A stretch of DNA of 64,000 nucleotides, taken from the NCBI GenBank assembly GCA_965153455.1, contig OZ234494.1, forward strand, positions 10,664,001 through 10,728,000. Reading direction: 5' to 3'. Below the pieces are notes generated by a model that saw only the letters and a list, made by a program, of their open reading frames with translations, did no database searches and had not been told where the DNA came from. This document shows positions 21,372 to 64,000 of the stretch, one piece after another. The translations under genes were made by a program, and so were the position numbers. The stretch is from Sphagnum compactum (Eukaryota). The first letter of the stretch is position 1, and each line of letters starts with the position of its first letter.

Positions 21372-21673
21372 GGCCCACTTTACACTAGGAGTCAAGGCCA
21401 ACATTCAATTCAAATCAAGCATTCCTAAGCTGAAGTCAGCCCCAAAGGCTTTACACTTGGGGTCAAGTCTGAAATAGGAAAAATCTTTTCAATCTGCCCC
21501 AAGTTACTAATAAATGCTAAACTTTATGTCCTTGTATTGGTCCCCAGGATGAAAAAAGGATACCATCAAATTTGGGAAGCCAATGTGCAACCCTTGGGTG
21601 CAAACAACAACCCAAAACTGATCAAAGTCAGCCCCCAGGCTTTTCGGCCGTAACTCCTAGTGTAATGGGGGCC
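21372..21673. mobile_element. Tourist-like (PIF/Harbinger) MITE ~1.9 kb upstream of RLK copy A
   Basis: TIRs ggcccactttacactaggagt / actcctagtgtaatgggggcc; TAA on both sides; copy B retains only the right half (~53535-53695). Confidence 0.75.
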
Positions 21674-22987
21674 TAAGTTATTGTACAAATAATTAGTGAT
21701 CTCAGGCGTAATCTTAGAGCACTTTGTTGCTAGAGCATCTCCACCCCCAGACCGGCAAACACCCCTTTTCAGTAAGTCTTGGAGCAGCATAGTGCAAATC
21801 CTGCTGCTTCTTTGGTTTTAGTGGTCCATTTTGCAGTAGTCATTTTAACCCCTAAAAGAACTTTTTTCTACTATGAATTTCGACAGTGACTATTACTCTC
21901 ATCCAGATGTAAAGGCATAAATAGTCTTTGAGTGTTTAAAGGGACTTTTATGACATTTGTGGGTGTGGACAGTGATCATTAAACAATATTCTATTCTAAA
22001 ATAAAGGAGTTGTTTACTGTTTTGCGGGTGGAGATGCTCAGAGATCATAGTTTCTAAATTTGAAACTTTGCACACACCCCCTCAAAATACTAAATAAAAA
22101 ATTGCACCCCCAGAATAAAATTGTAGTTTGGTTCTCTCCTTTTGGCCCTACATAAGGTTACGAAAGTTCAACTTTGGGCAAAGGTTATGTGACATGGTGT
22201 GTTGCTACAGGGACTGTCTTTGGGAACACATTGGGAACTTGGGGGGAATGTTAAGGATGCATTCAGAACCTGGTGGGAACGCATCAAAAACTTCATGGTA
22301 CTTAAGCCCCTGCCATTAGTCCAAGCCAAAAAATGGTGACAAACAGTTTTGAAAATAGAAATTCTGTGCAATCAATGGGAAGGCTTAACATGCACTCATG
22401 ATGGACCTGTTTTTTCCTTTTGGGGGTGGGGTCGGCGGAATTATTTTTTGCGTCTTTCCCTTGTTCTCAATGTGTTCTCAGAATGCGTTCCCCAAGATGA
22501 TCCCAATAGCACCTGGGTTTTATCCCATATGGTTTGCCCAAAGTTCAACTGCCCTGAATATAAACTAAAATGGTCAAATCCACAGGGTGGACATTTGTTT
22601 TTATTTTGCAACTGAGGTCCAAAGAGGTGCTTCTATTTGGGGCGTGCCCAATGTTCCAAAAACATTTGCTGTTGCGCCAATCAATATGGCTTCTCTAAAA
22701 AAGAATAGAATTAAAGTTGTGAGTGCAAACATGATCCAATTAATATGAATCACACTATACTATATTAATTAATAGACTAATCATGTCAACAGATAATTGG
22801 GAGATACGTGGCGGTAGCAGAAATGGCCATTTAAAAATAGCATCATTGGTTAAATCTGATCTTATTGTCTAATGAGGTCCATAAAGACTAATCTAGAGAC
22901 TAGTGCAAGTGCATGTTAATTTGTAGGTGGCATATGAACTGTTCGACCTCAAAGGAGTCAGTCCCAGGCTTGTTTTTTTAAAATCTG

Positions 22988-23225
22988 CAGTGTAGCAAGG
23001 TGGCGAGTATCCTCAGTCAAAATGCGACATAAATGGCGACGGTTTAATGATTTGGCCATTAAAACTGTCGCCCACAGGCAGCCCTGTGGCGACACTCCCT
23101 CGAAACAACTTTGATACTGTCTCAATTTTCGCGATTTGTTTTTGTAAAAACAGACCGTTTTCGCCAGATTTTGGAGGCAGAGTCGCCTTTTGGCGATTTT
23201 TCGCAAAAAAACAAACAAATCACTG
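22988..23225. mobile_element. CAGTG...CACTG-bounded, ggcga/tcgcc-rich MITE-like insert in the proximal promoter (also at ~55660-55900)
   Basis: 5-bp inverted ends, repeated TCGCC/GGCGA words and internal hairpins; no TSD recognised. Confidence 0.4.
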
Positions 23226-23586
23226 CAAAGGATCTTTCACGTTTGCAACCATACGTTACTTTAGGAATAATACGGCCTTTTCTACTGCGACACAGCTGCC
23301 TGCAACTACGGCTTTGCCGATTCCATCGGTTGGATGTGCAACTAGGCATCCAGATTTACCGATACTTGAAGGCGGTAGCGCACAGAAACGAACGCCCTGG
23401 TTGCTACTATACAAATTGCGTCTGAGAGGTGCGCTGCTTCTTCATGAGAGGATACAAGCTAAGCTCACAGTAAAGCGCTTTTTGTATGCATGGTTTGCTT
23501 GAGTGGGTACTACATTGACAGGTGAAGCGTGCAGTGACAAGGTTAAGATCATCTGTTATTTGTGCTCTGCATCAGTGGACAAACAA

Positions 23587-26500: not shown

Positions 26501-29500
26501 TTCACCAAATTTTTTTTTTCATCCATTGATCAATTATTCATCACTTGTAGTGCTAAGTAATGTGGAGCCCAAGTTTGATTAATATAATTATTTGTGAAAT
26601 ACCCCAAACTGGGGACTAAATAAGAAGTCAGGATGAAAACAGTAAGAAAAGCCCAGGGCACAAAACTAGTTTCGAGCCTAAATTAGTCTTCAGGGAAGTT
26701 TCACCCCCAATTTTGTATTTGCTTTACTTGTGCCTTGGTTGGTTCATATTCTTTATGGTATTAGGCCTTGTGAAAATAGGATTTGTAAATCTTCTAAACT
26801 GATACCTTCTTTCATGGAATGGTACCCAATTTCGCTCACTTTATAGATACACAAAGTCAGGACGAAGGAGGGGGTAGAAGGTCAAACTGGAATGTGATTT
26901 TACAGATAACGGTTCTTCGCAGGGTTGCACTGTTAGGCCCAGAAAAGGACACCAAATAGTGCTCGATGGAGGGAATTTAGCATCTTGCTAATCTAAGGGG
27001 CATAAGCTACTGAAAACTTGTAAACCAGAGATGGCTGGTACTGTTTCACTCTAGTTTAGGGTCGAGCAGGCTTTCTCAAACACACCAACAAAGTTTGTTT
27101 GTATTTTCAGGTGTCCTTGTTTGTAAGCTCAAGTCCTTGGGCTTAGAGACATGAGCTCTTTTAGTAATTTTATCCTAGACCAATGACTAGCTTGCCACCA
27201 ATGATAGTCTCATTTTAAAATTGTCATGTAACCTAGGGGCCCACAATGATTCTTGGGGATTTGAAATACTATGCAAAATATCTCACAACTTAGGGGTTAT
27301 TTTCTCACCTGCGACATTTGGTCACTTTTAGTGTTTCATAGATCTTAGCAAGATTTACTAATCTACACTAGCAATGGTGATTAACTACTGGTTAACCTCT
27401 GGTTAATCATCAATTCTAATCATTTCTTTTTCAAAAATACATATTTTGGTTTTGGTTTGAGTTCTGACACACATAATTAGAACCTTGAACCCAACCAATT
27501 TTGGGTTCGGTTCTTTAAATATATTATTCCAATTTTGAAAACCAGACCTGATTCTAATGTAATCCTTACTAATTGAAACCTAAACTGGAGGTTGCAACTT
27601 TAACCTGCCAAACTGAATACCCACCCAATACAGGAAATAACCCTCCTGTTATTGTTGGTACACCATATACACAGGTTATTCACAGAGAATAACTGTAATT
27701 ATACTTCATGTCTTATGTTTTGTATGATGTTATTTTTAGGAATATCAACTTGTGCTTAATACTAATCCATGAACATTTCACATCCAGGCAAGACTTTCAC
27801 ATCATTCATCTAACTTTTCTAATTGGGACCTCATGTTGTGATGTTTGACAGGAATCTTGCCCATTACAATCTAAGTGGGCCCATTTCACACGGCTTTAAC
27901 AACCTTGTGAACCTCATCCAGTTGTAAGTAACCTTCATAAGCAATATTTTATTATCTTTGAGATGGTACCAGGTAGGAGTCAACATGTGGGATTTTGGTA
28001 GGAATTTTTTTAAAAATCGATTCTACCATCTTTATTCACAAGAAATGTTTTTGAGTTCCTCTCTTGCATTTTTGATTTTATTTTTAAATGCCCTCAAAAA
28101 AACCAATGAATGCACATATCCCCTAAAAGGTCTTACTCAATAGGATAATGAACTGAGTTTTTCATATTTATGCCCTTTGTGATTTGTTTGAAAAATGATT
28201 TTTTCAAATTACCCCCATGAGGAAAGTTTGGTTATCTCTTGTTCTTGAGTTTTTTTAAACATCACAAAGGTGATTATCAATATTTTCTCCTTAAAAAAGG
28301 GAGTAAATAGGATACAATTCTTATTTACATAAAGAAAAGTGTGCTTGAGTAGTTGTTTAAGGCAAACTAAAGTCTTGAATTGGATAGTAAAACAATGTTC
28401 AATCCTTTTGATAACTTGAAAGGGGAAACTTTCTCCTTTTTTATTAACAAATCCCCAATGGTCCCACTTTCCCCTCCAACCACCTAAATCATCGATGACC
28501 CAAATTATGGTGCAAATCATGTCCCTAAAGATAGGGGGATTTGCAACCATCTCCCCCACAAGGAAACTTGTAAATCTTTGTTGGAATTTATCAAAACATG
28601 GATTGTGTAGCAATTACAAGCATTTGGTCTTTCATTAGATCTTATAAATGTTGGTCTTATGGTTTGAGTGTAGATGATAGTTGATGTGCGTTCATAAATA
28701 TTCACATGATCTTGCATTTACCAACGTCAGCTTCTAATGTAAGACCTTTGATCCAACAATAACTACTCGAACATTCAATTCATGATTTAACAACTAATTG
28801 GCCATGATGGCAGAAAAAGTGGTTGTTATGATCATACAAGAGTATATACTATTTATCTTTATATGGTCATTGTAAATATTGTAGTTTTAATAATTGCACA
28901 TTGGTTAATTTTTCAGTGATGGTGTGTTTTCATACGATATGCAGGGAATTGCAAAATAATACACTGAATGGTTCTATACCTATATTAACGCAGTTAACGA
29001 GCTTAACAACATTGTGAGTATACACATCCACCTTATGTAATTCATAGGGGAACTCTCATTTTTAGATCCACTAATTGGACATGAAGTAAAGACATGATAT
29101 CATGCCCAATAGGCACTAACATTTTGTCTGATATATACAATACATCCCTAAAATCTAAATGCTAATTTCTGTATCCATTCTCCACTAACCTCATTAATAC
29201 TTTGTAGAAAATAATAATTAAGTTTTTTTCTTGCTATTATAACCTGAATATTTTAGGAACTATTTAATATATATATATATATTTTATATTTTTGTTTTTA
29301 TAGTTACAATATGCATTGATTCAGCTGTGACCTTTTATTCTCAGATTCTAAAAAGATATTGTGGAACATTGTGTTTTGATCTACAATAGGAATTTGCAAA
29401 ATAATTTTCTATTTGGGGAGCTTCCATATTGGTTGGTTCAACTACCACATCTATCAGTATTGTGAGTATTCTATTATATAGTTTCCACTTCAAAAAGGTT

Positions 29501-32500
29501 ATTTGCATGATATTATGATTTTTTTAATCAACTTAAAAGACTAAACAAGTATTAATTCATGATTGAACCTTCAAATAGGATTTTGAAGCTTAGCACTAAT
29601 TTTTATATGCTTATATGTTTCTTTTTTCATTTCATATCAGTCACATCATGTAATTGCACAAGCCAAAGATATAAATATATCATGGAATAATTTGAATTAT
29701 TGTACATTTGGATAAAAAAATCCAACAAAGTTGAAAAACTTCAAACAAGTTGTGACATTGGACTTTCTACAATGTGGAACAGGTTTATACAAAATAACAA
29801 TTTTAGTGGCCCTATTCCCCCATATTTCATTCCCAACAATGGCACTTGGACTTTCATGTAAGTAAAAACAAAGATCCAAAAATTTGGCACCGTCTTTGCA
29901 TAAACATTTTTCATGCTTGTGAAAAACATTTCTTTTGAAACTCATGAATTTATATCCATTGTTTTTCATTGTCAAGAAAAATAATGGTTTTGATTCACCA
30001 AATTTGACAATTGTGTGTTTGTGAAAACTTGAAGTTATACTCCAGGAAACCTACTCTTGGACTCACCAATATCCAATCCCAAATCTACAAATATTGGAAT
30101 CATAATTGGTCCTATAATAGGTGGCAGCTTAATACTTGTTGTCATCATTTGTGTTATTGTTTATTTTCAACGTAAAAAAAGGCATGGCAAAACCACCAAA
30201 ATTAGCGAACATTTGCAAATGATGAAATCTACTCATCGAGGTAAGTGAAAAAACACTTTATATTTGGTAATTGATATTTTGACCTTTTTTAGTCATCACA
30301 TGTATTTTAAACATTTTAAAAAAACATTTTGAGTGAAAGTGTGTAAATTGCACAAAATATCATCCCAAATGGTAGTTTTTCATACTCCCTTCAAAGTGTT
30401 TATACCAAAAATGTACAAGAACATAATGATATTTGAATGATAAAATCACATTCATGTAGATGAACCTAACCTTCTAATTCTATGAATGTTTTAAAGTTGG
30501 ATATGATCACAATGTGCTTTGTTTGCATTAATAATTGTCTGACAAAATAACTTAACATATCACTTGGTGTTAGTACTATCAAAATTTGATGTTTTGAAAA
30601 AAAAACCATTTGTCAACAACTAAGACATCTCAATGTATCCAAAAACTTATAAAACGTGCTTATATACTATCACATCAATTTGGGATAATTTGACAAAAAA
30701 TTGATTCTTATAGAAATTGTCCATTGAAAGGAGTATATCAAAAATTAATATATTGAATCAGACGTTTACAAAGGAAAATTTCCTACAACCATCCTTGAAG
30801 GAATCATGTTGTTGGATTTTTGAAAACCTCAAATCCATGATTACTTGAAATGACTATTATCACTTCAAAAATGTAATGGGGTAGTTTATTCAAAAAATTG
30901 GTGTGTTTTGACATTCACACCAAATTTTCCCAAATTTTGGGAGGCACTAAATCATGATGTCATAAAGTGATGTACATAAAATTAACTTTGAATTCGTTGA
31001 GAAAAATGCATAAGTGCATCTGACAATTTAACATCTTGAAAAATTCAATTTATGAACTTGCTTTAAAGTTCCACATTGAACACTCATCTATATAGGTCAA
31101 TGTAATTTTCCTTGTAAATGAACCACATTTGAAGTATGTCAATGAAAAGATTGTATATAGTTTTGCATTAAGTAATGTGAAAAGGTAAAAACATGTACAG
31201 GAATTTATTTCACTTGAAATGTGCTGCACTAGAAAATTTTATCAAAATTATAAGAAAAGAAATTTGGGTGGTTTAGTGTTTGTCAATTGAATGAATGGAA
31301 AGTTATTAGTCTATCACTTCATGTTAAACACAACTAAACCACTATGTACATATTTTTGTTGGAATTAATTTTATGTATGGCTAATGCAATCTATGACATA
31401 GGTATTATACAAACATTCAATTGCATGCAGCAAGATTAATGACTTAATGATCATGTAGGTGCGAAGCCTTATTCACTTGATGAAGTTGTTGTTGCAACTA
31501 ACAACTTCAAGACAATGATTGGAAAAGGAGGGTTTGGACCTGTATATTATGGCAAGCTTGAAGATGGACAAGACGTGGCAATCAAAGAGCTTGATTTTAA
31601 ATCAACCCAAGGACCATCTGAATTCTTTAATGAGGTTTGTAAAAGTTCAAGACTTTTTTTTATGTTCGTAATGAAAACAGTTCAACTTGGTTGTGAAAGC
31701 AAACCCATTTAACTATAAAAACATATTCCAAATTTTTTAATTTTTTATATTTGTAGTAATTCTTTCCCTCCATGTTTTAGAATGTGTTATCAAATCATTC
31801 CAAAATGTGAACTTTGAATTTTGATTTAAAAATATTATACTAACAACTTAGCAATTTTTTAAAATCTTGATTTTGGAACTATATTATTCATTATTTGTCA
31901 AGAATCACCATCTCAAAATTTCAAATATGCCCAGGAGTATTGAACTTATTTAAGATGGACACATTGAGCACCCCCTAAATGTTAAAACTGAAAGTAATGC
32001 ATGGACTAACAAATTATTGATGAGTGATGAAATCATGTGGATCCCACATCCCAAATATTAAAGGACATAATACTTAAGTCATGTAGTTGAAAAGAATTTT
32101 GAATTATGTAGCCCACTAACTCAATGAATTTCATCATTTAATTATTTGAATGATGTTCAAAATTATGGAAGGGTTGACATTTCAAACATTCATCTTCAAG
32201 AACCTTGACCTATGCAATGTTGATTGAATGTGATTGATGTAGGTTGATGTTTTATCAAGGGTGAGCCATCGGAATTTGGTATCTTTAATTGGATATTGCC
32301 ATGAAGATAATCGAAAAATGTTGATTTATGAATACATGCATAAAGGCTCTTTACGTGATCATTTATACGGTACTATCAATTCCTACTCGAATTTTGATTT
32401 TGAACACATGATTGACTCATTATAAGTTCTAATACATGTAAAAACCTCCCTAAACATTTGAGAAATCCTTAAAGTGATCATATCTATGGGTCATCCTTTC

Positions 32501-34745
32501 ACCCCCTACACCTTATGTTAATCTCAAACTCTATTTTTTTTAAGATGAAAGAATTTAATTGAATAAAAAATGAAACTAAATATCAAAATATTTAATGCAC
32601 AAGGTTGGAAATAATTATGGAAAGAAGTAAGCACATTAGTAATGAATGTGCTCAAGAACAAAAAAAAAGATAAGGTGAAATCAAATTATCACAAAATTAA
32701 ATATAATTTGAATTTCACCTTGTCTTCATTCCTTGTTTAAATGCAATGATCTTTTTTACTATTTAAACAAAAATTAACCCCCTTACTGACCAAATTCAAT
32801 GTATTAATCCTATGTTTTCTTCACTTTACATATATCTCTATTCATCACCATGTTTTAATTATGTTGTTAGTGTCATTTATAATTGCTATTGTGATTAATG
32901 AATTTTTCTAGATGGAAATTTTTTGTCAAAGTTCAATGTAAAAAATATGATTTTGGTTTATACAAAAAAATATTTCATGAAATGAATCACCCAAAATTGC
33001 CAAATTTCAAATTTTATTTTTTCCAAATCATCAATTTTTGTGTGATAAGTTCCAACTACATGTAGCCAAGAATATAGAATTGTCCTTAGATTGTCTTATT
33101 TTCATATCTAATTTATAGCCAAATTTAGCTAAATTGACTTATCGATGGTCACCACTTTGGTTACATCACAAAATCCAAAAAAAATAAATCATTAATTCTG
33201 GTTGCAAATCAAAATCAAATAAAAAATTTCATGTTAATATGATTTTTTAAAATTAAACACAGGTGACATAGCAACATTGACAATTGAGCAACTTGATTGG
33301 AAAACACGCATGAACATTGCTCTCAATGCAGCACAAGGTAAATGCTTCAACTCCAACATGATTATTGTTGAGTAACACACCTTTGCAAATTAATGTAATT
33401 TTATTTTAATAACTTGTTCTTTTGCATGGCAAATTTAAATTTTGGGCCTATCAAAATGAAACACGAAACAATATATCATAAAGGAAAAATTTTATTAGTA
33501 CTTATGTTTTCCTAACATATTTACATGGTAATATTTTTAAGACATTTAAATTTGGAATTTGCAGGCCTGGAATATCTACATTCAGGGAGCAATCAAAGCA
33601 TTATTCATCGAGATGTTAAAAGCAGTAACATTTTACTTTCCAATAATATGGAAATCGCAAAAGTTGCAGATTTTGGTCTATCAAGATTAATATATGGGGA
33701 AGATGATATTACTCATGTTACAACAAATGTCAAGGGAACTGCAGGGTATCTTGATCCAGAGTGCGTATTTAACCACATATATTATATGGTCCAATTTATT
33801 GTAATGTGTGACATAGATTACAAAATCAATCGTTTGATGATTAAATATATGCACTTTACATGATTTCATCTTGTAGAATGTAACTTGATAATTTCAAAAT
33901 GTCATATTACATATTGCAATTTGCATTAACAATTAGTGTGCATGACTTTCCTCATTGATAGGTATTTTACAACACGATATTTATCACCAAAAAGTGATGT
34001 ATATGGCTTTGGTGTTGTGCTTTTGGAAATAATATCTGGACGCATGCCTGTAGATCCAACATTGCCAGAACGCAATGCTTGGAATTTGTGTGAGTGGGTA
34101 AGTTATGAATTATAATCCTTTGAAGTTTTTAGAATTTTGATTTTATTTATTTACCTTTAAAAATATGATTTACAAACTGTAATGAGAAAAGATGTATACA
34201 ATATTGGACTTGTATGTTCTTGCTCTGTTGTTTCACCCAAGATATACTCGTATGTGTGCTACAAAATGGAATTAGGTGGGTATATCAATTATATACTTTA
34301 AATACTTGGTCCATGGAAACATTACACATGATGGTGATATAGAAGTAAAATATCAAGTTTTAACCAAGCAACAATGAATGTCTATTGAACATACACTTAA
34401 AAACCTGTTTGCAAATGATATCAAAAGGTACAAATAATATGTGTATGTGTTGAATAGGTGCGATCCAATCTTCAAGCGGGAAATATTGACAAGATTTTGG
34501 ACCCTATTGTGAAAGCTTCAAATCCCCAACTTGATGCTTTATGGAAAGTTGCAGAAATTGCCATCCAATGTGTGGAACCCAAATCTATTCATAGACCAAC
34601 AATGACCAAGGTAGTTGAAGAATTACGGGCTGCACTCTTACAAGAAGGCTTGAACCCGACATTATCTGAATATTCACCAAATGATACATATGGAATTCAA
34701 GATCAATCTGGATTTCAAACAGATTCAACATTTGATCCTAGATGA
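23587..34745 (+). CDS. Malectin-like domain + LRR receptor-like Ser/Thr kinase (LRR-I / IOS1-At1g67720-like architecture), copy A; 15 exons, ~932 aa
   Basis: Hand-spliced with GT-AG introns; reading frame consistent throughout (2799 nt). Exons: 23587-23686, 24249-24795, 25214-25743, 26181-26310, 27852-27923, 28945-29013, 29390-29461, 29783-29857, 30035-30240, 31459-31634, 32243-32369, 33263-33337, 33565-33760, 33962-34097, 34458-34745. Motifs: signal peptide [64 protein letters not shown], PDDx[27 protein letters not shown] (malectin-like); [12 protein letters not shown] (LRR N-cap); LxLxNNxLxGxIP repeats; [27 protein letters not shown] followed by RKKR; kinase [64 protein letters not shown]. 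Confidence 0.95.
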
Positions 34746-49445: not shown

Positions 49446-49826
49446 TTGTTATAACTTTCTTGCTGTTCTTTGATAATTTCCAGCAAATCTTGCTGAACTT
49501 GTATTCAAAATGTCAGGGATTTCCATCTCAAAATCACCTTCCCTTCTTTTTTGGTGACACTATGTATCTTTGTGGAAATGCTCACTAGTTAGGCTGCATA
49601 AAAAAAACTGAAGCCTAGCATCTCTCTTTGGTTTCATTGCAGTAAAAATAAAATCCTTTTTGCATGTCAGAAATTGGAGTATTTGAACTATATTCACAAG
49701 AGAAAGGCAAGGATAAGAAAGAATCAAGTGTCACCTTCTATCAGGAAGCATATCAAGTAAAGAAAGGGGAGGTAAACCTGACAAAACTCCAAGCCTAGAA
49801 GAACCCTCCCCTGCAGTCACAGCCCG

Positions 49827-49944
49827 CCTCGAGATGGAGGCAGACTTCGCTCTACCCAAGAATCTGCCACCCAGCATGCCCCACCTCGAGATGGAGGCAG
49901 CCTTCGCTCTAGCCAAGAGTCCACCACCCGGCACGCCCCACCTC
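49827..49944 (+). repeat. 2 x 57 bp diverged tandem repeat in copy B (one unit in copy A at ~17082)
   Basis: cctcgagatggaggcag..cttcgctcta..caaga..ccaccc..gca.gcccca at 49827 and 49884. Confidence 0.9.
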
Positions 49945-52451
49945 CACCCCACGTTTTGCCCCCACCGGCCTCAAGGGGAATGAACCCAGTCGGAGACCTT
50001 ACAGAGAACCGGGATGAAAAGGCGACAAGCGCTGGTCAGCCTCGTCCGCTTCACGAACGGGTTTGTAGCAGCTGAGCAGATTCAGCCCTGCATGGTTTTG
50101 CAAAAAACCACGCAGCATGGTTCTACATGGTTTTTTAATTCTGCAAAAGAACTTAGCAATGCCCTTTTAATTTAAGAACTATTTTAAGAACTCTGAATCT
50201 TCCAGGTCAGAACATGCTACTGAGCACTGGCATAGATTCTGACACCGGAAAATGAGTGCTTCCTTTTCTATTTCATTAACTTCTACAGCCAAAAAGTCAA
50301 ACCCTGCGCCAGAACAGAACCACACGGTTCTCCGCCGGGGTGCCCGGTGCACTGGAAAGGACTCCGGATACTACTCGATGGGCCGCAGGTATTTAGCGGT
50401 TGACTTATAAGTACTGATTCTTATCATGGGCCCGGTACAAGGGAATAAAAAGTTGCCGTATGTCCTGTTCACTTGTCCTGGGGCCCCTACAAAGGCATAA
50501 AAAAGTTGCCGTATGTCCTCTACACTTGTATGGGCCTACGGCTAGAAGCTACAAACAGCATGGAATTCCACTGCTATTTTGGTTTTCATTTAATTGAAAA
50601 CGGGTGTTAATTAATTACAATCCCTTTGAATCCATAAAGGATGCAATCTTTTTAGAGTCGACTTTTGGAGCTGCTTCAAGAGAGATGAGGCGTACAGTAA
50701 ACTTACATAAGGGCTTTTCTATTGCGGAGATAGAGTGATCACTTCAACGAATCCTTTTAAAAATGTGGATGTGGTGTTATAGTATCAAAAATTGTTAATT
50801 GCACGTGTGGGTATGTGCATAATCATCAGTGTTAACCATCATCATATACTTTAAGACTTAGGTCAATAAGAGTTTCATAACAATCAATATAGGAGGATTA
50901 CCTCATAGATTTTACACATTGGAATCTTTAAAATATCATAGGATTTTATGTTGAACGAATTCATTCAAGCTTAAGAGGCGGTTGATTTGCAAATGGAGAT
51001 GAGTTGTTAATCTAATTTATGGCTTATTAACATACTAAACAAAAATGGGGATCAATTAGGTTGACTTATAGGTTTCAAATGTGTTTAAATTATAAGGTGA
51101 AGATGTCAAATAATATAAAGCCTCATTCATCACATGGATGGACATTTTGGAAAAGTACTTGCCAACATAATCTGATGGAATTATAACTAATATCTTGATA
51201 AGAAATGACGAGTAATAAAATTAAAATGTGCATTAGACATATATGAACAATAGAACTAATCATCCATTTTCTTCAAGTATTAAAAGAGGTTATGCTAGCA
51301 CTGATTTTTCATTTGTTCATCAAGACTTGGGTGAAAGCATGGTAAGTAGAACAAGAAAATGCCATTGCAAAATTCAGTTTAAAAATGAAATAATTCTTTA
51401 TATAAATATGAGACAATATGTATTCAAAAAAATTAATATTTTTATTATGAAACCATTGCCCACCTAATTTGTGTAATATGGTGGACATTTTTTAAAAAAA
51501 TGAAAGATGTTTAAAAAATTAGTACAATGTTTAAAAATAAAAATCTTCAATGTATTGAAATGTGGGATTTACATGGATCATCAACTACAACATTTTTGTT
51601 GGAAAACAACTTGCCTTATAATACTTTTTTGAAATAAGAATAAGGGTGATCATTATGTGTTAAAATTTGACATTACTTGAGACAAAGAAAGTATTGTTTG
51701 GGGGCTATTATTTACCATAAATTTAATTAAAATCTTCACCTTATTATAATATTCAATCCTCCCTATGCTTAGTTTATATTTTATTATCATTAAAAATTTG
51801 AATATATATACATAAATTGAAGCAATGAGGAATATGAAGGATTCACAATTTGTTGACATCTTTGTATATATCAAACAAACAACCATTGAGAAAAAAGACA
51901 ATCTATAAAGACAAACTAGTTGTTAAGTTGAGGAGGAATCCTAAGCAACATTAACTAATTCATCTTGGAAACTTCCATGTCTCTTTCGTGATACTATTGC
52001 CCCCCCCTGCCCCCTCTCCCTTCAACAAAAATCAAAATCAAAGGCATTGAATAAAAAATTTCCTAATTATTAATACATGATTAAATACATTCGAAACATA
52101 AGGTATTCATAAACCTTTTAATACATATTAAATGCATGTTTTGATTTTGAAAATATGCATGATGCCATTATAGAAACAATGGAATAGTTATAAAATTTAA
52201 GCAATAACTAGCCCCTTGCCGCTCCAAATGCAGAAAAGTTTTTTTAGTTTGGCTAAAACTTAATTATCATTTTTTGAATGTCTTTTTTAACATTGAAATT
52301 ATGTTCTAGATAGAAATTATTATGAAAGAAAACATGGATCATGAATTTTTTGTACAAAGATATTGGAACTTGGCACTAAATATGTGATTTAAAACTAGGA
52401 GTTCACATAAATCAAGACAAAGTTGAGATGTAAGAGAAATTTTCAATAACC

Positions 52452-52545
52452 TGATATCTAGCAATTGAAATTCTAAGTTGTTTGATATCTAGCAATTGAA
52501 ATTCTAAGTTGTTTGATATCTAGCAATTGAAATTCTAAGTTGTTT
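52452..52545 (+). repeat. 3 x 31 bp tandem repeat specific to copy B
   Basis: tgatatctagcaattgaaattctaagttgtt at 52452, 52483 and 52514; single copy at ~19644 in copy A. Confidence 0.95.
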
Positions 52546-53980
52546 CATGTGAGGAACCAAAAATCATTTTGAGAAGGACAATTATTGAACTATTCATCAA
52601 TTGTGATGATAGTCAAAAATTGTGGCAAACAACTTTAAGAAACCAAGAGATGTGGCTTCCTCAAGATTTTGATGAAAAATCAAGAAGACATTTTATGCAT
52701 GAAGTTTTTTTTTCTGAACTCTTTTGCAGTGATATAGGCTAGCTACATGAATCAAATAGCAATTAACTCAAAATTAACCTTGTTTAATTTGAATGTTGGA
52801 TATAATATAACAGGTATACATTCAAACTTTGGAAATGTATTGAAAAGAAAATCAGATTTAAATATGTTTTAATCATTCCATTGCACATATAGAATTTCCC
52901 AATATTGATGAAAGAAAAAAACAAAAATTTCCTGAACTCAAGAAGGTATTATTGTTTCAAGACATCAAAGAGAATCAAAAATATCAAAATGCTTATATTT
53001 AAAAAAAGTGTCAAGTAAGCAAGAAATTAATTAGATGAAGATTCCTTTTGAAATGATGAACCAGATTTATTGGAATCTAGATAAATTAAACAGTAAATAT
53101 TTCACATGATAATATAATTGAACTATAAAATATACGAGCCATGGCATCATTTTTAATCAAAAGATTTGGCACATATTAATTTGGATATTGGCAAGGAATA
53201 AAAGTGGTGGAAGAAATTGTTTTACCATGTTATGATGTAAGCATCTGTAAATGCATGGCCTCGTTGAGATCCAATTTGAGGTTTGAATGGCAAATATACC
53301 ATCCTAGTTGATATTGAGTTCAACTAATTTAATTCGATTTTTAATTTTAAATTCTTCTTGTTTTGCACCAAAAAAAAAGAAAAAGAAAAAAAAGTATGCA
53401 AAGTCATTCCTTGTAATTTTCCAAAATATTAGTAGGTAAAAAAGGTCATTTTATCCAACAAATAGTAATTTAAATTGTTTAAATACAACATCTTAAAATG
53501 ATGAATAATATTTTTTGAACCCTTATATTATATTAAATGCTAAACTTCGTGGCCTTGTATTGTTGCCCCGGATGAAAAAATGATACCATCAAATTTGGGA
53601 AGTTGATGTGCAACCCTTGGGGCCAAACATTAACCCAAAACTGATCAAAGTGGGTCCCAAGTTTTTCGGCTCTGACTCTTAGTGTAAGGTGGGGCTAAGT
53701 CATTTTTCCAAGAATTAGTGATTTCAGGTGTAATCTTATAGCACTTTGTTCCGAGAGCATCTCCACCCCCAAATCCACGAACACCCCTTTTCATTAAATC
53801 TTGCAGGAGGATAGTGCAAATCTTACTGCTTCTTTGGTTTTAATGGTCCATTTTGCAGTAGTCATTTTAACCCCTTTAAAAACTTTTTTTACTATGAATT
53901 TGGACCTTGACTATTACTCTCATCCAGATGTAAAGAGACATAAATGGTTTTTGAATGTTCAAAGGGACTTTTATGACATT

Positions 53981-54534
53981 TGTGACGTGAATGTAACTTG
54001 ATGTAATTACACAATTACTTAGGTAATTGTTTAAAGGGGTAAGTTGAGTGGTAGGATTCTATAATTTGGTCATGGTACATATCAATTTATGTGCAAGTCA
54101 TGTGCACCATGTGATTATGTTTCCTTGTGATTAATTGTGGAATCACATGGGGGGACCATGTGATTATGTTTCCTTGTGATTAATTGTGAAATCGCATGGG
54201 GAACCATGTGGTGGATAAACTTTAAGAAGTTTTTTGAGTAGTTTTCTTTTGGTTGGGATATAAGTGCGTGTTTATGACCTTGAGAAACACCTTCACTTGT
54301 ACAAAGTTATTATATGAATGCAAAGTTTGTTAAAATTTAAGTTTTGATTTTTTGAAAAGACTTTTGGTTTTGAATGGTTTTGGAGTTGTTTGTGTTTAGA
54401 TCATGGTAAGAGAATGGTGAAACTTGCATAGACAATTGAAAAGTGAGAGAATAATTTTACAACCAAAAACATAGATTTCATAACTATGTAGTAATCAAAC
54501 ATAGTTTCAGTTCCAAACTTGTTTGTGTTGTACA
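53981..54534. mobile_element. ~550 bp insertion present only in copy B upstream region; TG...CA ends; internal 49 bp tandem
   Basis: Absent at the matching site ~21958-21965 in copy A; internal repeat accatgtgattatgtttccttgtgattaattgtg at 54106 and 54155. Confidence 0.55.
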
Positions 54535-56261
54535 TGGACAGTGATCATTAAACGGTATTCTATTCTAAAATAAAAAAATTGTTTACTATTTTGCGGGTGG
54601 AGATGCTCTGAGAACGCAGTTTCTACATTTGAAACTTTGCACACACCCCCTCAAAATACTAAATAAAAAGATTGCACCCCCAGAATAAAATTATAGTTTG
54701 GCTCTCTCCTTTTGGCCCTACATAAGGTTAGAAAAGTTCAACTTTGGGCAAAGGTTATGGGACATGGTGTGTGGCTACAAGGATCATCTTTGGGAACACA
54801 TTGAGAACTTGGGGGGAATGTTAAGGATGCATTCAGAACCTGGTGGGTACACATCAAAAACTTCATGGTACTCAAGGTACTGGAACTTTTGTATTTTTTA
54901 GCAAGATATTACAATTGTTTATTGGACCGTTTCCAGCACTAAGAAGTTGTTCCATATAAAGGTGAACAGGATTAGACTCATAACTATGTTCCCAAATTTC
55001 TGCCCCTGCCATTAGTCCAGGCCAAAAAATGGTGACAAACAGTTTTGAAAATAGAAATTCTGTGCAATCAATGGGAAGGCTTAACATGCACTCATGATGG
55101 ACCCTGTTTTTTCCTTTTGGGGGTGGGGTGGGTGGAATTATTTTATGTGTCTTTCCCTTTTCTTTCCTCAAGATGTTCCCAATAGCACCTGGGTTTTATC
55201 CCATAAGGTTTGCCCAAAGTTCAACTGCCCTGTATATAGACTAAAAAGGTGAATTTCAAGGGTGGACATTTGTTTCTAATTTACAACTGGGGTCCAAAGA
55301 GGTGCTTCTATTGGGGGCATGCCCCATGTTCCAAAAACGTTCGCTGATGGGCCAATGAATATGGCTCCTCTAAAATTAAAAAATTAAAGTTGTGAGCGCA
55401 AACATGATCCAATTAATACGAATCACACTACACTATATTAATTAATAGACTAATCATGTCAACAGATAATTGGGAGATAAGTAGCGGTAGCAGAAATGCC
55501 CATTCAAAAATAGTATCATTGGTTAGATCTGATCTTATTGTCTAATGAGGTCCATGAAGACTCATCTAGAGACTAGTGCACGTGCATGTTAATTTGTAGG
55601 TGGCATATGAACTGTTCGAACTCAAAGGAGTCAGTCCCAGGCTTGTTTTTTTCAACTCTGCAGTGTAGCAAGGGTGGCGAGAATCCTAAGTCAAAATGCG
55701 ACATAAATGGCGACGGTTTAATGATTTGGCCATTAAAACTGTCGCCCACAGGCAGCCCTGTGGCGACACTCTCTCCAAACAACTTTCATACTGTCTCAAT
55801 TTTCGCGATTTGTTTTTGTAAAAAACAGACCGTTTTCGCCAGATTTTGGAGGCAGAGTCGCCTTTTGGCGATTTTTCGCAAAAAAACAAACAAATCACTG
55901 CAAAGGATCTTTCACGTTTGCAACCATACGTTACTTTAGGAATAATACGGCCTTTTCTACTGCGACACAGCTGCCTGCAACTACGGCTTTGCCGATTCCA
56001 TCGGTTGGATGTGCAACTAGGCATCCAGATTTACCGATACTTGAAGGCGGTAGCGCACAGAAACGAACGCCCTGGTTGCTACTATACAGATTGCGTCTGA
56101 GAGGTGCGCTGCTTCTTCATGAGGGGATACAAGCTAAGCTCACAGTAAAGCTCTTTTTGTATGCATGGTTTGCTTGAGTGGGTACTACATTGACAGGTGA
56201 AGCGTGCAGTGACAAGGTTAAGATCATCTGTTATTTGTGCTCTGCATCAGTGGAAAAACAA

Positions 56262-59200
56262 ATGGAAGTCTGGATGGCCACGTTGTTGTTGGTTGCAGTA
56301 CTGCTGGAAGCTCTACTGTGCAGTCTGTCCACTGTTCCAGGCGTGTCGGCCCAAGCTCCAGGTTTGTGGCCTATTCATACAAACCGTCTCTGGTTTGTGC
56401 ACCCTTGCATAGTATGAACTATGTACTGATCGTGTTCCACTTTGGAAAATTGGGTAGCTCTCAATTTCCTTGTATGCACATGTTTCTTTGAATACGAAAT
56501 ACAAAACTGAATTTCCCAGCAAAATGCGATGAAACTTGAAGAAAAGCATGAACTAGTGTTCAAAGAGTTTGGATTTCTTTGTGGAGACGTGAATCAACGT
56601 TATCTCCTAGTATTTTGACAAAGTATCAATTCTAGGTCATGAAGTTGTGCCTAGAGGTTGATATTTGAGGCCACACATCCTACCTTTTTTTTAACAAAAA
56701 AACAACTATATAACTAAAGCATGAACCAAACAAGGTGCAAATCAAGTAGGCACACTCGTTGGCAACTGGCTTCGCAAGATGTCCGGTACATAATGAACGA
56801 ATCATAGGTCTAGTCCAGCTCTATTCTCTCAAACATCTAAGGTTCACCACTTCAGTTCTCAGCACGCGAGTGGCTCAAGATATAACACAACATGAGTTGA
56901 CTTCATTTTTTATGTTGGCATGCAGGATCCATCTTTGTCGACTGTGGTTCAAACACCAAATATGTAGACAAAGTCACAAATATAACATGGGTCCCTGATG
57001 CACCATATATAACATCTGGTGTAAACGGATACGTCCCTAGCGCTCAGACGAATTATCCAAGCTTCTCTGAATTCACAACCGTGAGATACTTTCCCGATTC
57101 TCATCCCAAAAACTGTTACACCTTTCCAGTATCGCCAAAACAGATGTATCTACTGAGAGGGACATTCTTCTATGGTTCTTATGACAATGCCACCACACTC
57201 CCTAGCTTTTACATGGGTATTGATGGGACTATTGTTGCCAATGTTTCCTTTAATGACGCCAATACATTTGTGTATTATGAATTTAGTTATACATCTCAGC
57301 CAAATAATAATGTGACGTTCTTATGCCTATTACGAGACTCCTCTAAGTCTGTTCCATTTATTTCTGCAATATCTTTCTCACCGTTGCCGAATACTTATTT
57401 TGACTTTGGAGATTATTATTTTGTTTATGCTAGTCTTGAAACCGTCTACGAGACAAAATACAGGTTGAACTTTGGTGGAAATGAAATCATCAGGTGTGTC
57501 AGCCAAATTATGTCGATTCCAAATTTCCTATTGTGCTCTTCATGTACTGATCAAGTTGATATAACTTCATGAAGTGGGGTTAAGTTACTCCTCTAAGAGT
57601 TCTCACCTAATATCATCGAATAAATTACAGCACTTAGAAATCACATAGAATAACAATGTCATTAATGGTGCCACAAAATATGCTTCTTGATTAATGTAAA
57701 TAAATTACCTCTAGTTTGCTGAAGCTTCGAATACACTAAGTATTAATGATCAAAATATTAAACACGCATATTGCATTTATGTTTGATGCATCATAGTCCT
57801 ACTGCCTCTGAATCTTTTGGGAATGATTCCCTTGACCTATGGTTGATTTGCATACAAGTAATCATAGTTTGCTTATCGTTCTATCTTTATAACATTTTTT
57901 TGTTATTGCAGATATCCTGATGATGTTTACGATCGATATTGGTTTCCAGTGCAAGGGTCAAATTCAACATTTGTACAAAGTACCAATATGTCAGGGCTAC
58001 AAAACTTAATGACTAACCTCTCAGTCTTGCTGCCAATGACTGATAAATTCGACGACTTCCCCCCTGACGCAGTCATGCGTACTGCCCTGACTGACACAAA
58101 CGGCAACATGACAATCTCCTTCCCAGACATGAATAGCTATGAAGCGTATCTGTCATTTTACTATGCTGAATTAGATCCAACTGCAAATGGTACTTCACGA
58201 AATTATTATGTAACCACATCTAATTCTTATTATCCCATCTTAGTAAATCCAGTCCTCAACCAGACAATTAGTAACTTAAATGTTTTCAGTTTTCCTAATA
58301 TCGTAACTTTTGGCTTGTTGCCGTATTACGAAGGATGGAATATTCTTCTCTATCCAGACCCCACCAGTCCTCTGGGTTCCTTGGTGAATGCCTTGGAGTT
58401 TTTGGAAGCAGAACCCCCAATGGCTACATTGACAAACCCTCAAGATGGTGAGTTAATCATCTGGCTGTGAGTTCTGGTTTTTGGTTGTCTTTTAGTAATT
58501 TTCATCAGAAGACACCCATGACATTCCACACGAAGGGAATCAGTTTCACATCTCAAGTTAACATGTCAGAGAAAATTATCCATAGTGCAATCTAGTTACT
58601 GTGCTAAATTTAGTGTTGGATCTTCTGATGTTAACTATTGTTTTGTTCGACATTGCCCCTCAAAAAAATCTGAAGTCTGACCTTGTTGATCCAAAAAGTC
58701 TTCAATTGCATCATATTGGCTGATGGCTAGAGCAATGGTTTTCCATTATGAACCATATTACATTACCAAAACAAAGATAAACTACATTCCATAATTTCGA
58801 AATTTTAATCTACAAAATTATTGGGTCAAAGTATTGCTGAAAGTTGTGACAATTAATAGAAACTAGTATGTGATGTGCATGTAGCACTTGCTATTGAGGA
58901 GATAAAGTCAATCTACAACCTTACTGATTGGAGCGGTGATCCCTGTCTTCCATTTCCGCATCCCTGGGTTACATGCGGCTTTGACAGCCAATCCATCCCT
59001 TCAATTATTGGCGTGTGAGTAATTTTCCTATTCAACTATATAACCATTTTATTGACGTTGTTATAGAAGATCACAAACACAGTTTCAATATCTTCACCAA
59101 TTTGCATCTAACTTTTTTCCAATTGAATTTTGATCTATTATTGAATTCAATTCAAAATGCATGCAAACATTCAATTTTCATTTAAATGGAACTTAATTTT

Positions 59201-62200
59201 CACAAAATTAATTCTTTTTTTTTTCATCCATTGATCAGATAATCATCACTTGTAGTGCTAAGCAATGTGAAGCCCAAGTTTGATTAGTATAATGGTTTGT
59301 GAAATACCCCAAACTGGGGACTAAATAAGTGGTCAGGATGAAAATAGTATGAAAAGCCCAGGGCACAAAACTAGTTTCGGACTTAAATTAGTCTTAAGGG
59401 AAGTTTTACCCCCAATTTTGGATTTGCTTTACTTGTGCCTTGGTTGGCTCATATTCTTTGTGGATTAGGCCTTCTAAGAAAAGATTTGTAAATCTTCTAA
59501 ACTGATACCTTCTTTCATGGACTGGTACCCAATTTCGCTTACTTTATAGATACACACAAATTGAGGATGAAGGAGCGGGTAGAAGGTCAAACTGGAATGT
59601 GATTTTACAGATAACAGTTCTTCGCAGGGTTGCACTGTTAGGCCCAGAAAAGGGCACCAAATAGTGCCCGATGGCCGGGGGGGGGGGGGGGGGGGGGATT
59701 TAGCATCTTGCTAATCTAACGGACATAAGCTACTGAAAACTTGTAAACCAGAGATGGCTGATACTATTTCACTCTAGTTTAGGGTCGTGCAGGCTTTCTG
59801 AAACACACCAACAAAGTTTGTTTGTATTTTCAGGTGTCCTTGTTTGTAAGCTCAAGTCCTTGGGCTTAGAGACATGAGCTCTTTTAGTAATTTTATCCTA
59901 GACCAATGACTAGCTTGCCACCAATGATAGTCTCATTTTAAAATTGTCATGTAACCTAGGGGCCCACAATGATTCTTGGGGATTTGAAATACTATGCAAA
60001 ATATCTCACAACTTAGGGGTTATTTTCTCACCTGCGACATTTGGTCACTTTTAGTGTTTCATAGATCTTAGCAAGATTTACTAATCTACACTAGCAATGG
60101 TGATTAACTACTGGTTAACCTCTGGTTAATCATCAATTCTAATCATTTCTTTTTCAAAAATACATATTTTGGTTTTGGTTTGAGTTCTGACACACATAAT
60201 TAGAACCTTGAACCCAACCAATTTTGGGTTCGGTTCTTTAAATATATTATTCCAATTTTGAAAACCAGACCTGATTCTAATGTAATCCTTACTAATTGAA
60301 ACCTAAACTGGAGGTTGCAACTTTAACCTGCCAAACTGAATACCCACCCAATACAGGAAATAACCCTCCTGTTATTGTTGGTACACCATATACACAGGTT
60401 ATTCACAGAGAATAACTGTAATTATACTTCATGTCTTATGTTTTGTATGATGTTATTTTTAGGAATATCAACTTGTGCTTAATACTAATCCATGAACATT
60501 TCACATCCAGGCAAGACTTTCACATCATTCATCTAACTTTTCTAATTGGGACCTCATGTTGTGATGTTTGACAGGAATCTTGCCCATTACAATCTAAGTG
60601 GGCCCATTTCACACGGCTTTAACAACCTTGTGAACCTCATCCAGTTGTAAGTAACCTTCATAAGCAATATTTTATTATCTTTGAGATGGTACCAGGTAGG
60701 AGTCAACATGTGGGATTTTGGTAGGAATTTTTTTAAAAATCGATTCTACCATCTTTATTCACAAGAAATGTTTTTGAGTTCCTCTCTTGCATTTTTGATT
60801 TTATTTTTAAATGCCCTCAAAAAAACCAATGAATGCACATATCCCCTAAAAGGTCTTACTCAATAGGATAATGAACTGAGTTTTTCATATTTATGCCCTT
60901 TGTGATTTGTTTGAAAAATGATTTTTTCAAATTACCCCCATGAGGAAAGTTTGGTTATCTCTTGTTCTTGAGTTTTTTTAAACATCACAAAGGTGATTAT
61001 CAATATTTTCTCCTTAAAAAAGGGAGTAAATAGGATACAATTCTTATTTACATAAAGAAAAGTGTGCTTGAGTAGTTGTTTAAGGCAAACTAAAGTCTTG
61101 AATTGGATAGTAAAGCAATGTTTGAGGTTCAATTTTTTTGATAACTTGAAAGGGGAAACTTTCTCCTTTTTTACTAACAAATCCCCAATGGTCCCACTTT
61201 CCCCTCCAACCACTTAAATCAACGCTGACCCAAATTATGGTGCAAATCATGTCCCTAAAGATAGGGGATTTGCAACCATCTCCCCCACAAGGAAACTTGT
61301 AAATCTTTGTTGGGATTTATCAAAAAATGGATTGTGTAGCAATTACAGGCACTTGGTCTTTCAGTAAACGCCATAAATGTTGGTCTTATGGTTTGAGTGT
61401 AGATGATAGTTGACGTGCATTCATAAATATTCACTTGATCTTGCATTTACCAACATCAACTTCTAATGTAAGACCTTTGATCCAACAATAACTACTCCAA
61501 CATTCAATTCATAATTTAACAACTAATTGGCCATGATGGTAGAAAAAATGGTTGTTATGACCATACAAGAGTATATATTATTTATCTTTATATGGTCATT
61601 GTAAATATTGTAGTTTTAATAATTGCACATTGGTAGTTTTTCAGTGATGGTGTGTTTTCATATGATGTGCAGGGATTTGCAAAATAATGCACTGAATGGT
61701 TCTATACCTATATTAACGCAGTTAACAAGCCTAACAACCTTGTGAGTATACACATCCACCTTATGTAATTTATATGGGATACTCTCATTTTTAAGATTCA
61801 CTAATTGGACATGAAGTAAAGACATGATATCACACCCAATAGGCACTAACATTTTGTCTTATATATATACATTACATCCCTAAAATCTAAATGCTAATTT
61901 CTTTATCCATTGTCCACTAACCTCATTAATACTTTGTAGACAATAAACAATTAAGTCTTTTTTCTGCCACTATAACCTGAATATTTTAGGAACTATTTAA
62001 TATATATTATGTTTTTACATTTTTGTTTTGATAGTTACAATATGCATGGATTCAGGTGTGACCTTTTATTCTCAGATTCTGAAAAGATATTGTGGAACAT
62101 TGTTGTGTTTTGATCTACAATAGGAATTTGCAAAATAATTCTCTAGCTGGGGAGCTTCCATATTGGTTGGTTCAACTACCACATCTATCAGTATTGTGAG

Positions 62201-62972
62201 TATTCTATTATATAGTTTCCACTTCAAAAAGGTTATTTCCATGATATTATGATTTTTTTAATCAACTTAAAAGATTAAACAAGTATTAGTTCATGATTGA
62301 ACCTTCAAATAGGACTTTGAAGCTTAGCACTAATTTTTATATACTTATATGTTTTTTTTGCAATTTCATATTAGTCACGTCATGTAATTGCACAAGCCAA
62401 AGATATAAGACCATCATGGAATAATTTGAATTATTGTACATTTGGATAAAAAAATCCAACAAAGTTGAAAAACTTCAAACAAGTTGTGACATTGGACTTT
62501 CTACAATGTGGAACAGGTTAATACAAAATAACAATTTTAGTGGCCCTATTCCCCCATATTTCATTCCCAACAATGGCACTTGGACTTTCGTGTAAGTAAA
62601 AACAAAGATCCAAAAATTTGGCTCCATCTTCGCATAAACATTTTTCATGCTTGTGAAATAATTTCTTTTGAAACTCATGAATTTATATCCATTGTTTTCA
62701 TTGTCAAGAAAAAGAATGGTTTTGATTCACCAAATTTGACAATTGTGTGTTTGTGAAAACTTGAAGTTATACTCCAGGAAACCTACTCTTGGACTCACCA
62801 ATATCCAATCCCAAATCTACAAATATTGGAATCATAATTGGTCCTATAATAGGTGGCAGCTTAACACTTGTTGTCATCATTTGTGTTATTGTTTATTTTC
62901 AACGTAAAAAAAGGCATGGCAAAACCACCAAACTTAGTGAACATTTGCAAATGATGAAATCTACTCATCGAG
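56262..62972 (+). CDS. Paralogous malectin-like/LRR receptor-like kinase, copy B; exons 1-9 (ectodomain + TM), kinase exons expected beyond the window end
   Basis: Exons: 56262-56361, 56926-57493, 57912-58447, 58885-59014, 60575-60646, 61673-61741, 62124-62195, 62517-62591, 62767-62972. Splice sites and phases match copy A; indels are in-frame (+21 nt in exon 2, +6 nt in exon 3); no stop codons. The window ends inside intron 9. Confidence 0.93.
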
Positions 62973-64000
62973 GTAAGTGAGAAAACACTTTATATTTGGT
63001 AATTGATATTTTGACCTTTTCTAGTCATCACATGTATTTTAAACATTTTAAAAAAACATTTTGAGTGAAAGTGTGGTAAATTGCACAAAATATCATCCCA
63101 AATGGTAGTTTTTCATACTCCCTACAAAGTGTTTATACCAAAAATGTACAAGAACATAATGATATTTGAATGATAAAATCACATTCATGTAGATGAACCT
63201 AACCTTCTAATTCTATGAATGTTTTAAAGTTGGATATGATCACAATGTGCTTTGTTTGCATTAATAATTGTCTGACAAAATAACTTAACATATCACTTGG
63301 TGTTAGTATTATCAAAATTTGATGTTTTGAAAAAAAAACCATTTGTCAACAACTAAGACATCCCAATGTATCCAAAAACTTATAAAATGTGTTTATATAC
63401 TATCACATCAATTTGGGATAATTTGACAAAAAATCGATTCTTAATGAAATCGTCCATTGAAAGGAGTATATCAAAAATTAATATATTGAATTAGACATTT
63501 ATAAAGGAAAATTTCCTACAACCATCCTTGAAGGAATCATGTTGTTGGATTTTTGAAAACCTCAAATCCATGATTACTTGAAATGACTATTATCACTTCA
63601 AAAATGTAATGGGGTAGTTTATTCAAAAAATTGGTGTGTTTTGACATTCACACCAAATTTTCCCAAATTTTGGGAGGCACTAAATCATGATGTCATAAAG
63701 TGATGTACATAAAATTAACTTTGAATTCGTTGAGAAAAATGCATAAGTGCATCTGACAATTTAACATCTTGAAAAATTCAATTTATGAACTTGCTTTAAA
63801 GTTCCACATGTGAACACTCATCTATATAGGTCAATGTAATTTTCCTTGTAAATGAACCACATTTGAAGTATGTCAATGAAAAGATTGTATATAGTTTTGC
63901 ATTAAGTAATGTGAAAAGGTAAAAACATGTATAGGAATTTATTTCACTTCAAATGTGCTGCAATAGAAAATTTTATCAAAATTATAAGAAAAGAAATTTG

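Follow-up and report, generated by a model that had tools for sequence, protein, structure and literature searches.

Tandem receptor kinase genes in Sphagnum compactum with a malectin-like module that is probably under diversifying selection

The window analysed here, a stretch of 64,000 bp from the peat moss Sphagnum compactum (contig OZ234494.1 of assembly GCA_965153455.1, positions 10,664,001 to 10,728,000), holds two tandem copies, A and B, of a receptor kinase gene with an extracellular malectin-like domain. We consider it very likely that these are tandem Sphagnum receptor kinases in which a hypervariable module, consisting of exon 3 and the 3' part of exon 2, is under diversifying selection. 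For the half-domain encoded by exon 3, diversifying selection is strongly supported once 36 further relatives are included. All coordinates are those of the window, and all genes and exons described lie on its plus strand.

Divergence of exon 3 between the two copies

Exon 3 encodes the second half of the malectin-like domain in both genes (25214..25743 in A; 57912..58447 in B, where the hypervariable module is recognised by its Pfam match and its divergence from A). The intervals given for this exon in the original prediction, which was made from the DNA letters alone, are its exact borders, AG...GT in both copies. The frames are open when read one base in, giving 176 residues in A and 178 in B. 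In a codon alignment, the 177 aligned codons contain 38 replacements and 50 nucleotide differences, with two one-codon insertions or deletions (indels); the prediction had counted about 38 replacements and two indels, and all four of the variable patches that it quoted were found. It had allowed for a single silent change, ACT/ACC, and this change is there, but the total of silent-only codons is two, the added TTG/CTG hinging on the placement of a neighbouring gap. About three more synonymous steps lie within codons that were hit more than once (Nei-Gojobori sd 5.2, nd 44.8). Intron 2 is nearly unchanged, as predicted, although the "about ten" differing sites become six substitutions and two indel events in 417 aligned bases, and the two differences predicted for the transmembrane exon hold for residues (two) but not for bases (three). 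Intron 3 (58448..58884 in B) differs at 19 of 437 bases.

Estimated by the Nei-Gojobori method, replacement divergence per site in exon 3 (dN) is 0.118 and silent divergence (dS) 0.044, a ratio (omega) of 2.65; pairwise maximum likelihood gives an omega of 3.1-3.5, with p 0.007-0.012 in a likelihood ratio test (LRT) against omega = 1. A comparison with non-coding DNA, for which the duplicated introns and 5' flank served as the reference (7,119 aligned sites), gives 45 of 411 replacement sites changed in exon 3 (0.109) versus 246 of 7,119 non-coding sites (0.0346), a ratio of 3.2 (Fisher p 1.2e-10). When single-hit codons alone are counted, 29 are replacements and 2 are silent (binomial p 0.018). 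Exon 3 has retained each of its six N-glycosylation sequons, three of them with substitutions. The remaining exons together have an omega of about 0.7. The transmembrane and kinase regions were compared as protein, the kinase DNA of B lying beyond the window, and show seven substitutions and one gap in 397 aligned columns.

Selection among relatives and rival explanations

Relatives were taken from moss metagenome contigs, with 61 loci in one scan and 47 (L001-L047) on Sphagnum-like genomic contigs. Exon 3 is complete in 46 of these loci (L017 is cut short), and all 46 are open and have AG/GT borders; together with A and B they make 48 sequences, which reduce to 38 unique ones. Their alignment is a conserved framework broken by four hypervariable, indel-rich patches, the same four that the original prediction had quoted. 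Column entropy in the 36 sequences other than A and B is 1.98 bits at positions where A and B differ versus 0.94 bits where they are identical (p 4e-8). A and B sit in a clade of eight, with six metagenome sequences, in which internal support is 35-42% bootstrap. Two near-identical metagenome copies (L037 and L038) have an internally deleted exon 2 and an intact exon 3, and are likely decaying members of the family.

Site models (M0, M1a, M2a, M7, M8, and M8a) were fitted with a Python program of our own, using F3x4 frequencies, eight beta classes, and naive empirical Bayes. For exon 3 of the A/B clade, M0 gives an omega of 2.09, and the LRT statistics are 99.2 (M1a/M2a), 100.6 (M7/M8), and 99.1 (M8a/M8); about 29% of sites fall at an omega of about 8, and 31 sites have a posterior above 0.9. 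When codons next to gaps are left out (158 of 181 remain), omega under M0 is 2.14 (LRT 11.7 versus omega = 1, p 6e-4) and the M1a/M2a statistic is 83.6. Exon 3 gives an M0 omega of 1.14 in a sister clade of nine sequences (M1a/M2a LRT 48.8) and of 1.31 in a distant clade of 14 (M1a/M2a LRT 123); the control, codons 1-100 of exon 2 in six sequences, gives 0.47. Six members carry exon 2 as well; in all 15 pairs that these form, exon 3 has an omega above 1 (range 1.06-3.91), and over the same pairs its dN is 0.12-0.19 versus intron-2 distances of 0.015-0.052. The prediction of diversifying selection is thus borne out by site models and by the addition of more relatives.

The boundary drawn for the variable region fared less well: exon 3 belongs to it, as predicted, but exon 3 alone is too narrow, and that delimitation was rejected because the selection signal extends back into the final third of exon 2. 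Over its full length, exon 2 has an omega of 0.96 with a selected site class (LRT 53), and its codons from 101 to the end have an omega of 1.77. The corresponding part of B (57231..57493; equivalent to 24554-24795 in A) has a raised replacement rate and a five-codon indel relative to A.

The 50 nucleotide differences between A and B in exon 3 were polarised with the six other clade members. At 16 sites the state of B is unique and at 14 that of A, at another 16 both states are shared with other members, and at four neither is shared. A and B have both diverged in exon 3.

Several observations weigh against selection on a binding surface as we propose it. The pairwise p of about 0.01 is weakened by the post hoc choice of exon 3 from nine exons, which makes the comparison with non-coding DNA the stronger of the two. 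Nine of the 40 differing codons carry two or three changes, and such codons could be products of multi-nucleotide mutation or small indel events. The program used for the site models is neither PAML nor HyPhy, and the LRTs of site models can be inflated by recombination among the paralogs, which is likely; pairwise and M0 estimates are far less dependent on it. The metagenome relatives cannot be sorted into orthologs and paralogs, and the homoplastic third of the polarised sites suggests recurrent substitution or exchange among paralogs. By predicted secondary structure, the exon 3 differences fall in strands (14), loops or insertions (24), and helix (2), with no enrichment in loops. Finally, of 1,159 RNA reads, 55 are at least 99% like B.

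If constraint on one redundant copy had been relaxed, or that copy were on its way to becoming a pseudogene, the replacements would be neutral. Tandem duplicates often decay, the nine ectodomain and transmembrane exons combined have an omega of about 1.1-1.2, no different from 1, and the database model of B omits most of exon 2, all of which would suit such a history. Neutrality predicts an omega of about 1, however, where 2-3.5 is seen, and replacements stand at 3.2 times the non-coding divergence. All exons seen of A and B are open, as are 38 of 38 unique family sequences; the two copies share the changes evenly; neither framework residues nor any of the six glycosylation sequons have been lost; omega exceeds 1 in every one of the 15 pairs; and RNA joints (38 reads, 56349 to 56924) back the full exon 2 acceptor that the database model passes over. 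Because omega lies above 1, replacements exceed intron divergence, and frames and sequons are preserved, neutral decay fits poorly, and we regard it as very improbable.

A more serious competitor is that the variable patches were imported by ectopic conversion from distant family members, while the flanks of A and B were made alike by conversion between the two copies. Exchange between the copies does occur. A run of 1,314 bp, which includes LRR (leucine-rich repeat) exon 5, is 100% identical between A (27078-28391) and B (59801..61114), copies that elsewhere differ at about 3.5% of sites; among 2,000 simulations run with the observed divergence, the longest identical stretch measured 354 bp. 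A and B therefore undergo gene conversion with each other, and we read the tract, from its identity, as a recent event of this kind. The exon 3 differences form patches, 16 of the 50 sites have both of their states represented elsewhere in the clade, and the exon 3 tree leaves A and B unpaired, with low support. The accessible text of a study of the Arabidopsis OAK receptor cluster (Smith, Bomblies and Weigel 2011, PMC3136440) raises the same alternative. Imported tracts should nevertheless bring silent differences with them, and dS in exon 3 (0.044) is near the non-coding value (0.035) and below the dS of exon 2 (0.089-0.10); the donors, moreover, would need a replacement excess of their own, and that excess is what the family-wide omega above 1 shows. 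Import alone cannot account for the pattern, since exon 3 has no raised silent divergence, and we judge it unlikely as the explanation; conversion may shuffle selected variation, but selection would still be the cause. Despite conversion between A and B, no part of the genes is as diverged as the malectin lobe.

An artefact of sequencing or assembly, a collapsed or chimeric paralog, or a wrong frame or exon model might be suspected in a paralog-rich region, such regions being prone to mis-assembly, and in a gene whose deposited model is partly wrong. Sequencing error had also been named in the original prediction as a result that would overturn it, and here that objection failed: the contigs of X1 (covering 57578-57989 and 58069-58619 of B) and X2 (57578-57900 and 58234-58619), two DNA runs that belong to separate studies, reproduce B with no differences, although either run could be the assembly's own source. 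The frame is set by the Pfam match and by 36 relatives with identical AG/GT borders, and RNA joints fall at the inferred junctions. We give an artefact of any of these kinds hardly any credence.

In the explanation that we prefer, diversifying selection, the window holds two tandem, intact paralogs, each with a putative signal peptide, a malectin-like domain of two lobes, a GDPC linker, three or four LRRs, a transmembrane helix, and an RD kinase. Replacements in the second lobe and at the end of the first have been fixed faster than silent or intronic changes, at the positions that are variable throughout the Sphagnum family, while framework residues, the six sequons, the LRRs, the transmembrane helix, and the kinase have been kept. 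Conversion between A and B homogenises the flanks as the variable lobe remains diverged. This lobe may carry a binding surface for an extracellular partner, for instance a glycan or peptide or a molecule of microbial origin, and duplication combined with selection could then yield receptors of new specificity that signal through a conserved kinase.

Relation to known receptor kinases

The original prediction had ranked the genes as a candidate for an undescribed system, a claim that does not stand: as far as the accessible portions of the two papers go, the same pattern has been published for the OAK (OUTGROWTH-ASSOCIATED KINASE, At5g59670b) tandem cluster of Arabidopsis thaliana, the nearest precedent (Smith, Bomblies and Weigel 2011, PMC3136440), and the expansion in bryophytes of subfamily I of the LRR receptor-like kinases (LRR-I) has also been published (PMC10739070). 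In the portion of the OAK paper available to us, the proteins are described as having a signal peptide, two malectin-like regions, 4-5 LRRs, a transmembrane segment, and a kinase. Their strongly divergent region, residues 180-331, coincides with the second malectin-like domain, which is enriched in positively selected codons, with LRR and kinase domains conserved. Neighbouring genes share an identical fragment of 2.7 kb, which was read as recent gene conversion; codeml gave no gene-wide signal, and the authors left open the choice between selection and conversion (PMC3136440).

The Sphagnum pair likewise diverges in the second malectin lobe (38 of 177 exon 3 residues) versus the transmembrane and kinase regions (7 of 397). 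As in the portion of the OAK study cited, the lobe contains positively selected sites, here with the reservation that the implementation is our own and recombination may intrude, and there is a conversion tract between the neighbouring copies. The divergence described there is among alleles and accessions of an angiosperm, whereas that described here is among paralogs in a moss, and unlike in the published OAK results available to us, omega in Sphagnum exceeds 1 across the entire half-domain, and does so in three clades. Orthology between OAK and the Sphagnum genes is not expected because LRR-I subclades are lineage-specific, according to the accessible part of the subfamily survey (PMC10739070). 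OAK-like denotes a pattern, not a clade.

The same part of that survey describes LRR-I as having a malectin-like domain, 2-4 LRRs, and a kinase, and reports its expansion, largely in tandem, in Brassicales and bryophytes; it also finds bryophytes largely without the LRR-XII and receptor-like protein (RLP) arrays of most flowering plants (PMC10739070). A and B resemble LRR-I as so described in domain order, LRR number, tandem duplication, and large lineage-specific expansion (all 84 database matches being from Sphagnum). The survey, in the sections accessible, gives counts and architectures, and the selection on the bryophyte malectin lobe comes from the present analysis. Malectin-containing LRR kinases of Arabidopsis show more positive selection in their ectodomains than in their kinase domains, according to the available text of a further study (PMC12382012). 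No description of such selection in a moss was found in the literature searched, a search that left supplementary subclade tables outside its scope; one further paper, PMC12512272, had no bearing on the question. The finding is a new and unusually clear case of a known pattern, and no new kind of system.

Two further receptor groups invite comparison. The CrRLK1L kinases (FERONIA, ANXUR1/2; structures 6A5E, 6FIG, and 5Y96) share with A and B a tandem malectin-like fold, as judged from a structural model of the relative P0004. Membership in that family was rejected, since A and B carry LRR exons and a GDPC linker, of which CrRLK1L proteins carry neither, and only the fold is common; structure-based identity between the P0004 model and CrRLK1L ectodomains is 14-18%, and sequence similarity was undetectable by phmmer against the PDB (no matches at E 0.01). 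SYMRK (DMI2/NORK) has a malectin-like domain, a GDPC motif, about three LRRs, and a kinase, and its malectin-like domain is released by GDPC-dependent cleavage. A and B carry the GDPC motif as well, and their hypervariable array is unlike SYMRK, which is single-copy and conserved. IOS1, an example of LRR-I, has a reported role in pattern-triggered immunity.

To our knowledge, hardly any ligands of LRR-I malectin-like receptors have been described. A lobe that gains replacements faster than silent changes in dozens of moss paralogs is a probable seat of specificity, and A, B, and their relatives amount to a natural variant series for domain-swap and binding tests, as well as candidate recognition receptors for studies of Sphagnum and its microbes. 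The evolutionary mode of one Arabidopsis cluster is here seen in a lineage that split early from the line of flowering plants. A broader and decidedly tentative proposal is that expanded LRR-I receptors with a hypervariable second lobe form the main diversifying cell-surface recognition repertoire of peat mosses, a counterpart of the LRR-XII and RLP arrays, tuned to molecules of the Sphagnum microbiome or symbionts, with secreted malectin-only isoforms that retain intron 3 acting as soluble decoys or co-receptors; should the pattern have the same cause as that of OAK, the second lobe would then be a recognition module of ancient date among land plants.

Gene structure, transcripts, and surrounding sequence

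Self-BLAST of the window reveals a tandem segmental duplication, copy A at 16815..31266 and copy B at 49560..64000, in collinear pieces of 86-95% identity, one of them 9,042 bp long at 95.0%; copy B is clipped by the window end. Each duplicate contains one plus-strand gene. Gene A (23587..34745), located by tblastn with the proteins P0003 and P0005, is complete, with 15 exons that encode a malectin-like/LRR/kinase receptor: 23587-23686, 24249-24795, 25214-25743, 26181-26310, 27852-27923 (exons 1-5), 28945-29013, 29390-29461, 29783-29857, 30035-30240 (exons 6-9), and six kinase exons at 31459-31634, 32243-32369, 33272-33337, 33565-33760, 33962-34097, and 34458-34745. Its splice sites were carried over from the map of B, and every border is AG/GT. 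The frame is open through to the stop codon and encodes a hydrophobic stretch corresponding to a transmembrane helix and a kinase with VAIK, HRD, and DFG motifs.

Exons 1-9 of gene B lie inside the window (56262..64000) and its kinase exons beyond the window end. Its exons 1-5 are at 56262-56361, 56926-57493, 57912-58447, 58885-59014, and 60575-60646, and exons 6-9 at 61673-61741, 62124-62195, 62517-62591, and 62767-62972. P0003 was rebuilt exactly from the window and the full exon 2 was taken from P0005 and the open frame; the nine exons thus fixed have AG/GT borders. P0003, a protein of 775 residues deposited as "unnamed protein product [Sphagnum compactum]", is 100% identical to the translation of 57913-58446, in keeping with the probable bryophyte origin that had been predicted from the letters. 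Matching database proteins were all from Sphagnum, 16 of 16 in a first search and 84 of 84, at E 1e-10 or better, in a second.

The prediction of tandem malectin-like LRR receptor kinases agrees with the Pfam, self-BLAST, and tblastn results. The domain order in A and B is a hydrophobic N-terminus, Malectin_like (PF12819), a GDPC linker (exon 4; 58885..59014 in B, with a translation that includes WSGDPCLPFPHPW), four LRR-sized exons, a transmembrane helix, and a protein kinase. Exon 2 matches positions 1-172 (A, E 1e-37) and 1-155 (B, E 3e-35) of the 331-position PF12819 profile, exon 3 of both genes matches positions 179-328 (E 1e-13 to 1e-14), and the relative P0005 matches positions 1-330. 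The family is marked by two to four repeats before the transmembrane helix; here four exons, each 23-25 codons long, read as such repeats and contain motifs of the type LxLQNNxLxGxxP. The Pfam profile LRR_1 passes its cut-off of 20.6 bits with a score of 23.0, and LRR_4 and LRR_8 stay under theirs. In P0003, which represents B, the kinase domain matches Pkinase (E 4e-45) and PK_Tyr_Ser-Thr (E 8e-49), and the G-D-P-C columns are almost invariant in an alignment of 74 family proteins. By domain layout, A and B are assigned as intact malectin-like/LRR/kinase receptors of LRR-I architecture; formally, the subfamily is delimited by how kinase domains group in a phylogeny.

An AlphaFold2 model of P0004, built on a 74-sequence alignment, has a mean predicted local distance difference test score (pLDDT) of 74, with most of the second lobe at 80-94. 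In a fold search it resembles the ANX1, FER, and ANX2 ectodomains (E about 1e-15, template-modelling score about 0.56). The hydrophobic N-terminus, a putative signal peptide, forms a helix at residues 2-21 of the model.

PolyA RNA reads carrying the same species label cover the exons and leave introns 1 and 2 uncovered, their strand sense fits a plus-strand gene, and their joints coincide with the inferred exon junctions. The deposited model of B (P0003) joins 56361 to an internal acceptor at 57412, so that most of exon 2 is missing and, with it, the greater part of the first malectin lobe. A full-length exon 2 (56926-57493) is backed by P0005 and other relatives, by its open frame, and by the 38 reads mentioned above, so the loss in P0003 is probably an annotation error. 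The RNA reads were placed at a likeness threshold of 85% and derive mostly from other paralogs (681 of 1,159 are under 90% alike). At this threshold, and as hints of expression only, A-type letters are carried by 19 of the 25 reads over 57229 and by 16 of the 22 over 57291; at 58378, the letter of B (T) occurs in 4 of 89.

Reading through the exon 3 donor (58448-58470 in B; 25744-25766 in A) adds seven codons, GELIIWL in B and GELIIWV in A, before a stop. Two database proteins, P0004 and P0010, whose source contigs measure about 1.9 kb, have introns 1 and 2 removed and terminate in intron 3 read-through. The depth of polyA RNA is 4-10 in intron 3 versus about 0 in introns 1 and 2, and at 58692 the letter of A is found in 10 of 10 RNA reads. 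The read-through may represent a secreted isoform consisting of the malectin-like domain only, or unspliced precursor RNA.

Between the two copies lie degenerate telomere-like repeat arrays (CCCTAAA/TTTAGGG-type units within periods of 54-222 bp) at about 41100-42200 and 43700-46950, and these two blocks have strand skews opposite to each other. Just upstream of each start codon is a G+C-richer open frame (22996-23502 in A; 55737-56177 in B), whose translation (AFSTATQLPATTALPIPSVGCATRHPD...) recurs as the annotated N-terminus of P0006 and P0011 from another Sphagnum species; the frame may be a conserved 5' leader, an upstream open reading frame, or a repeat fragment.

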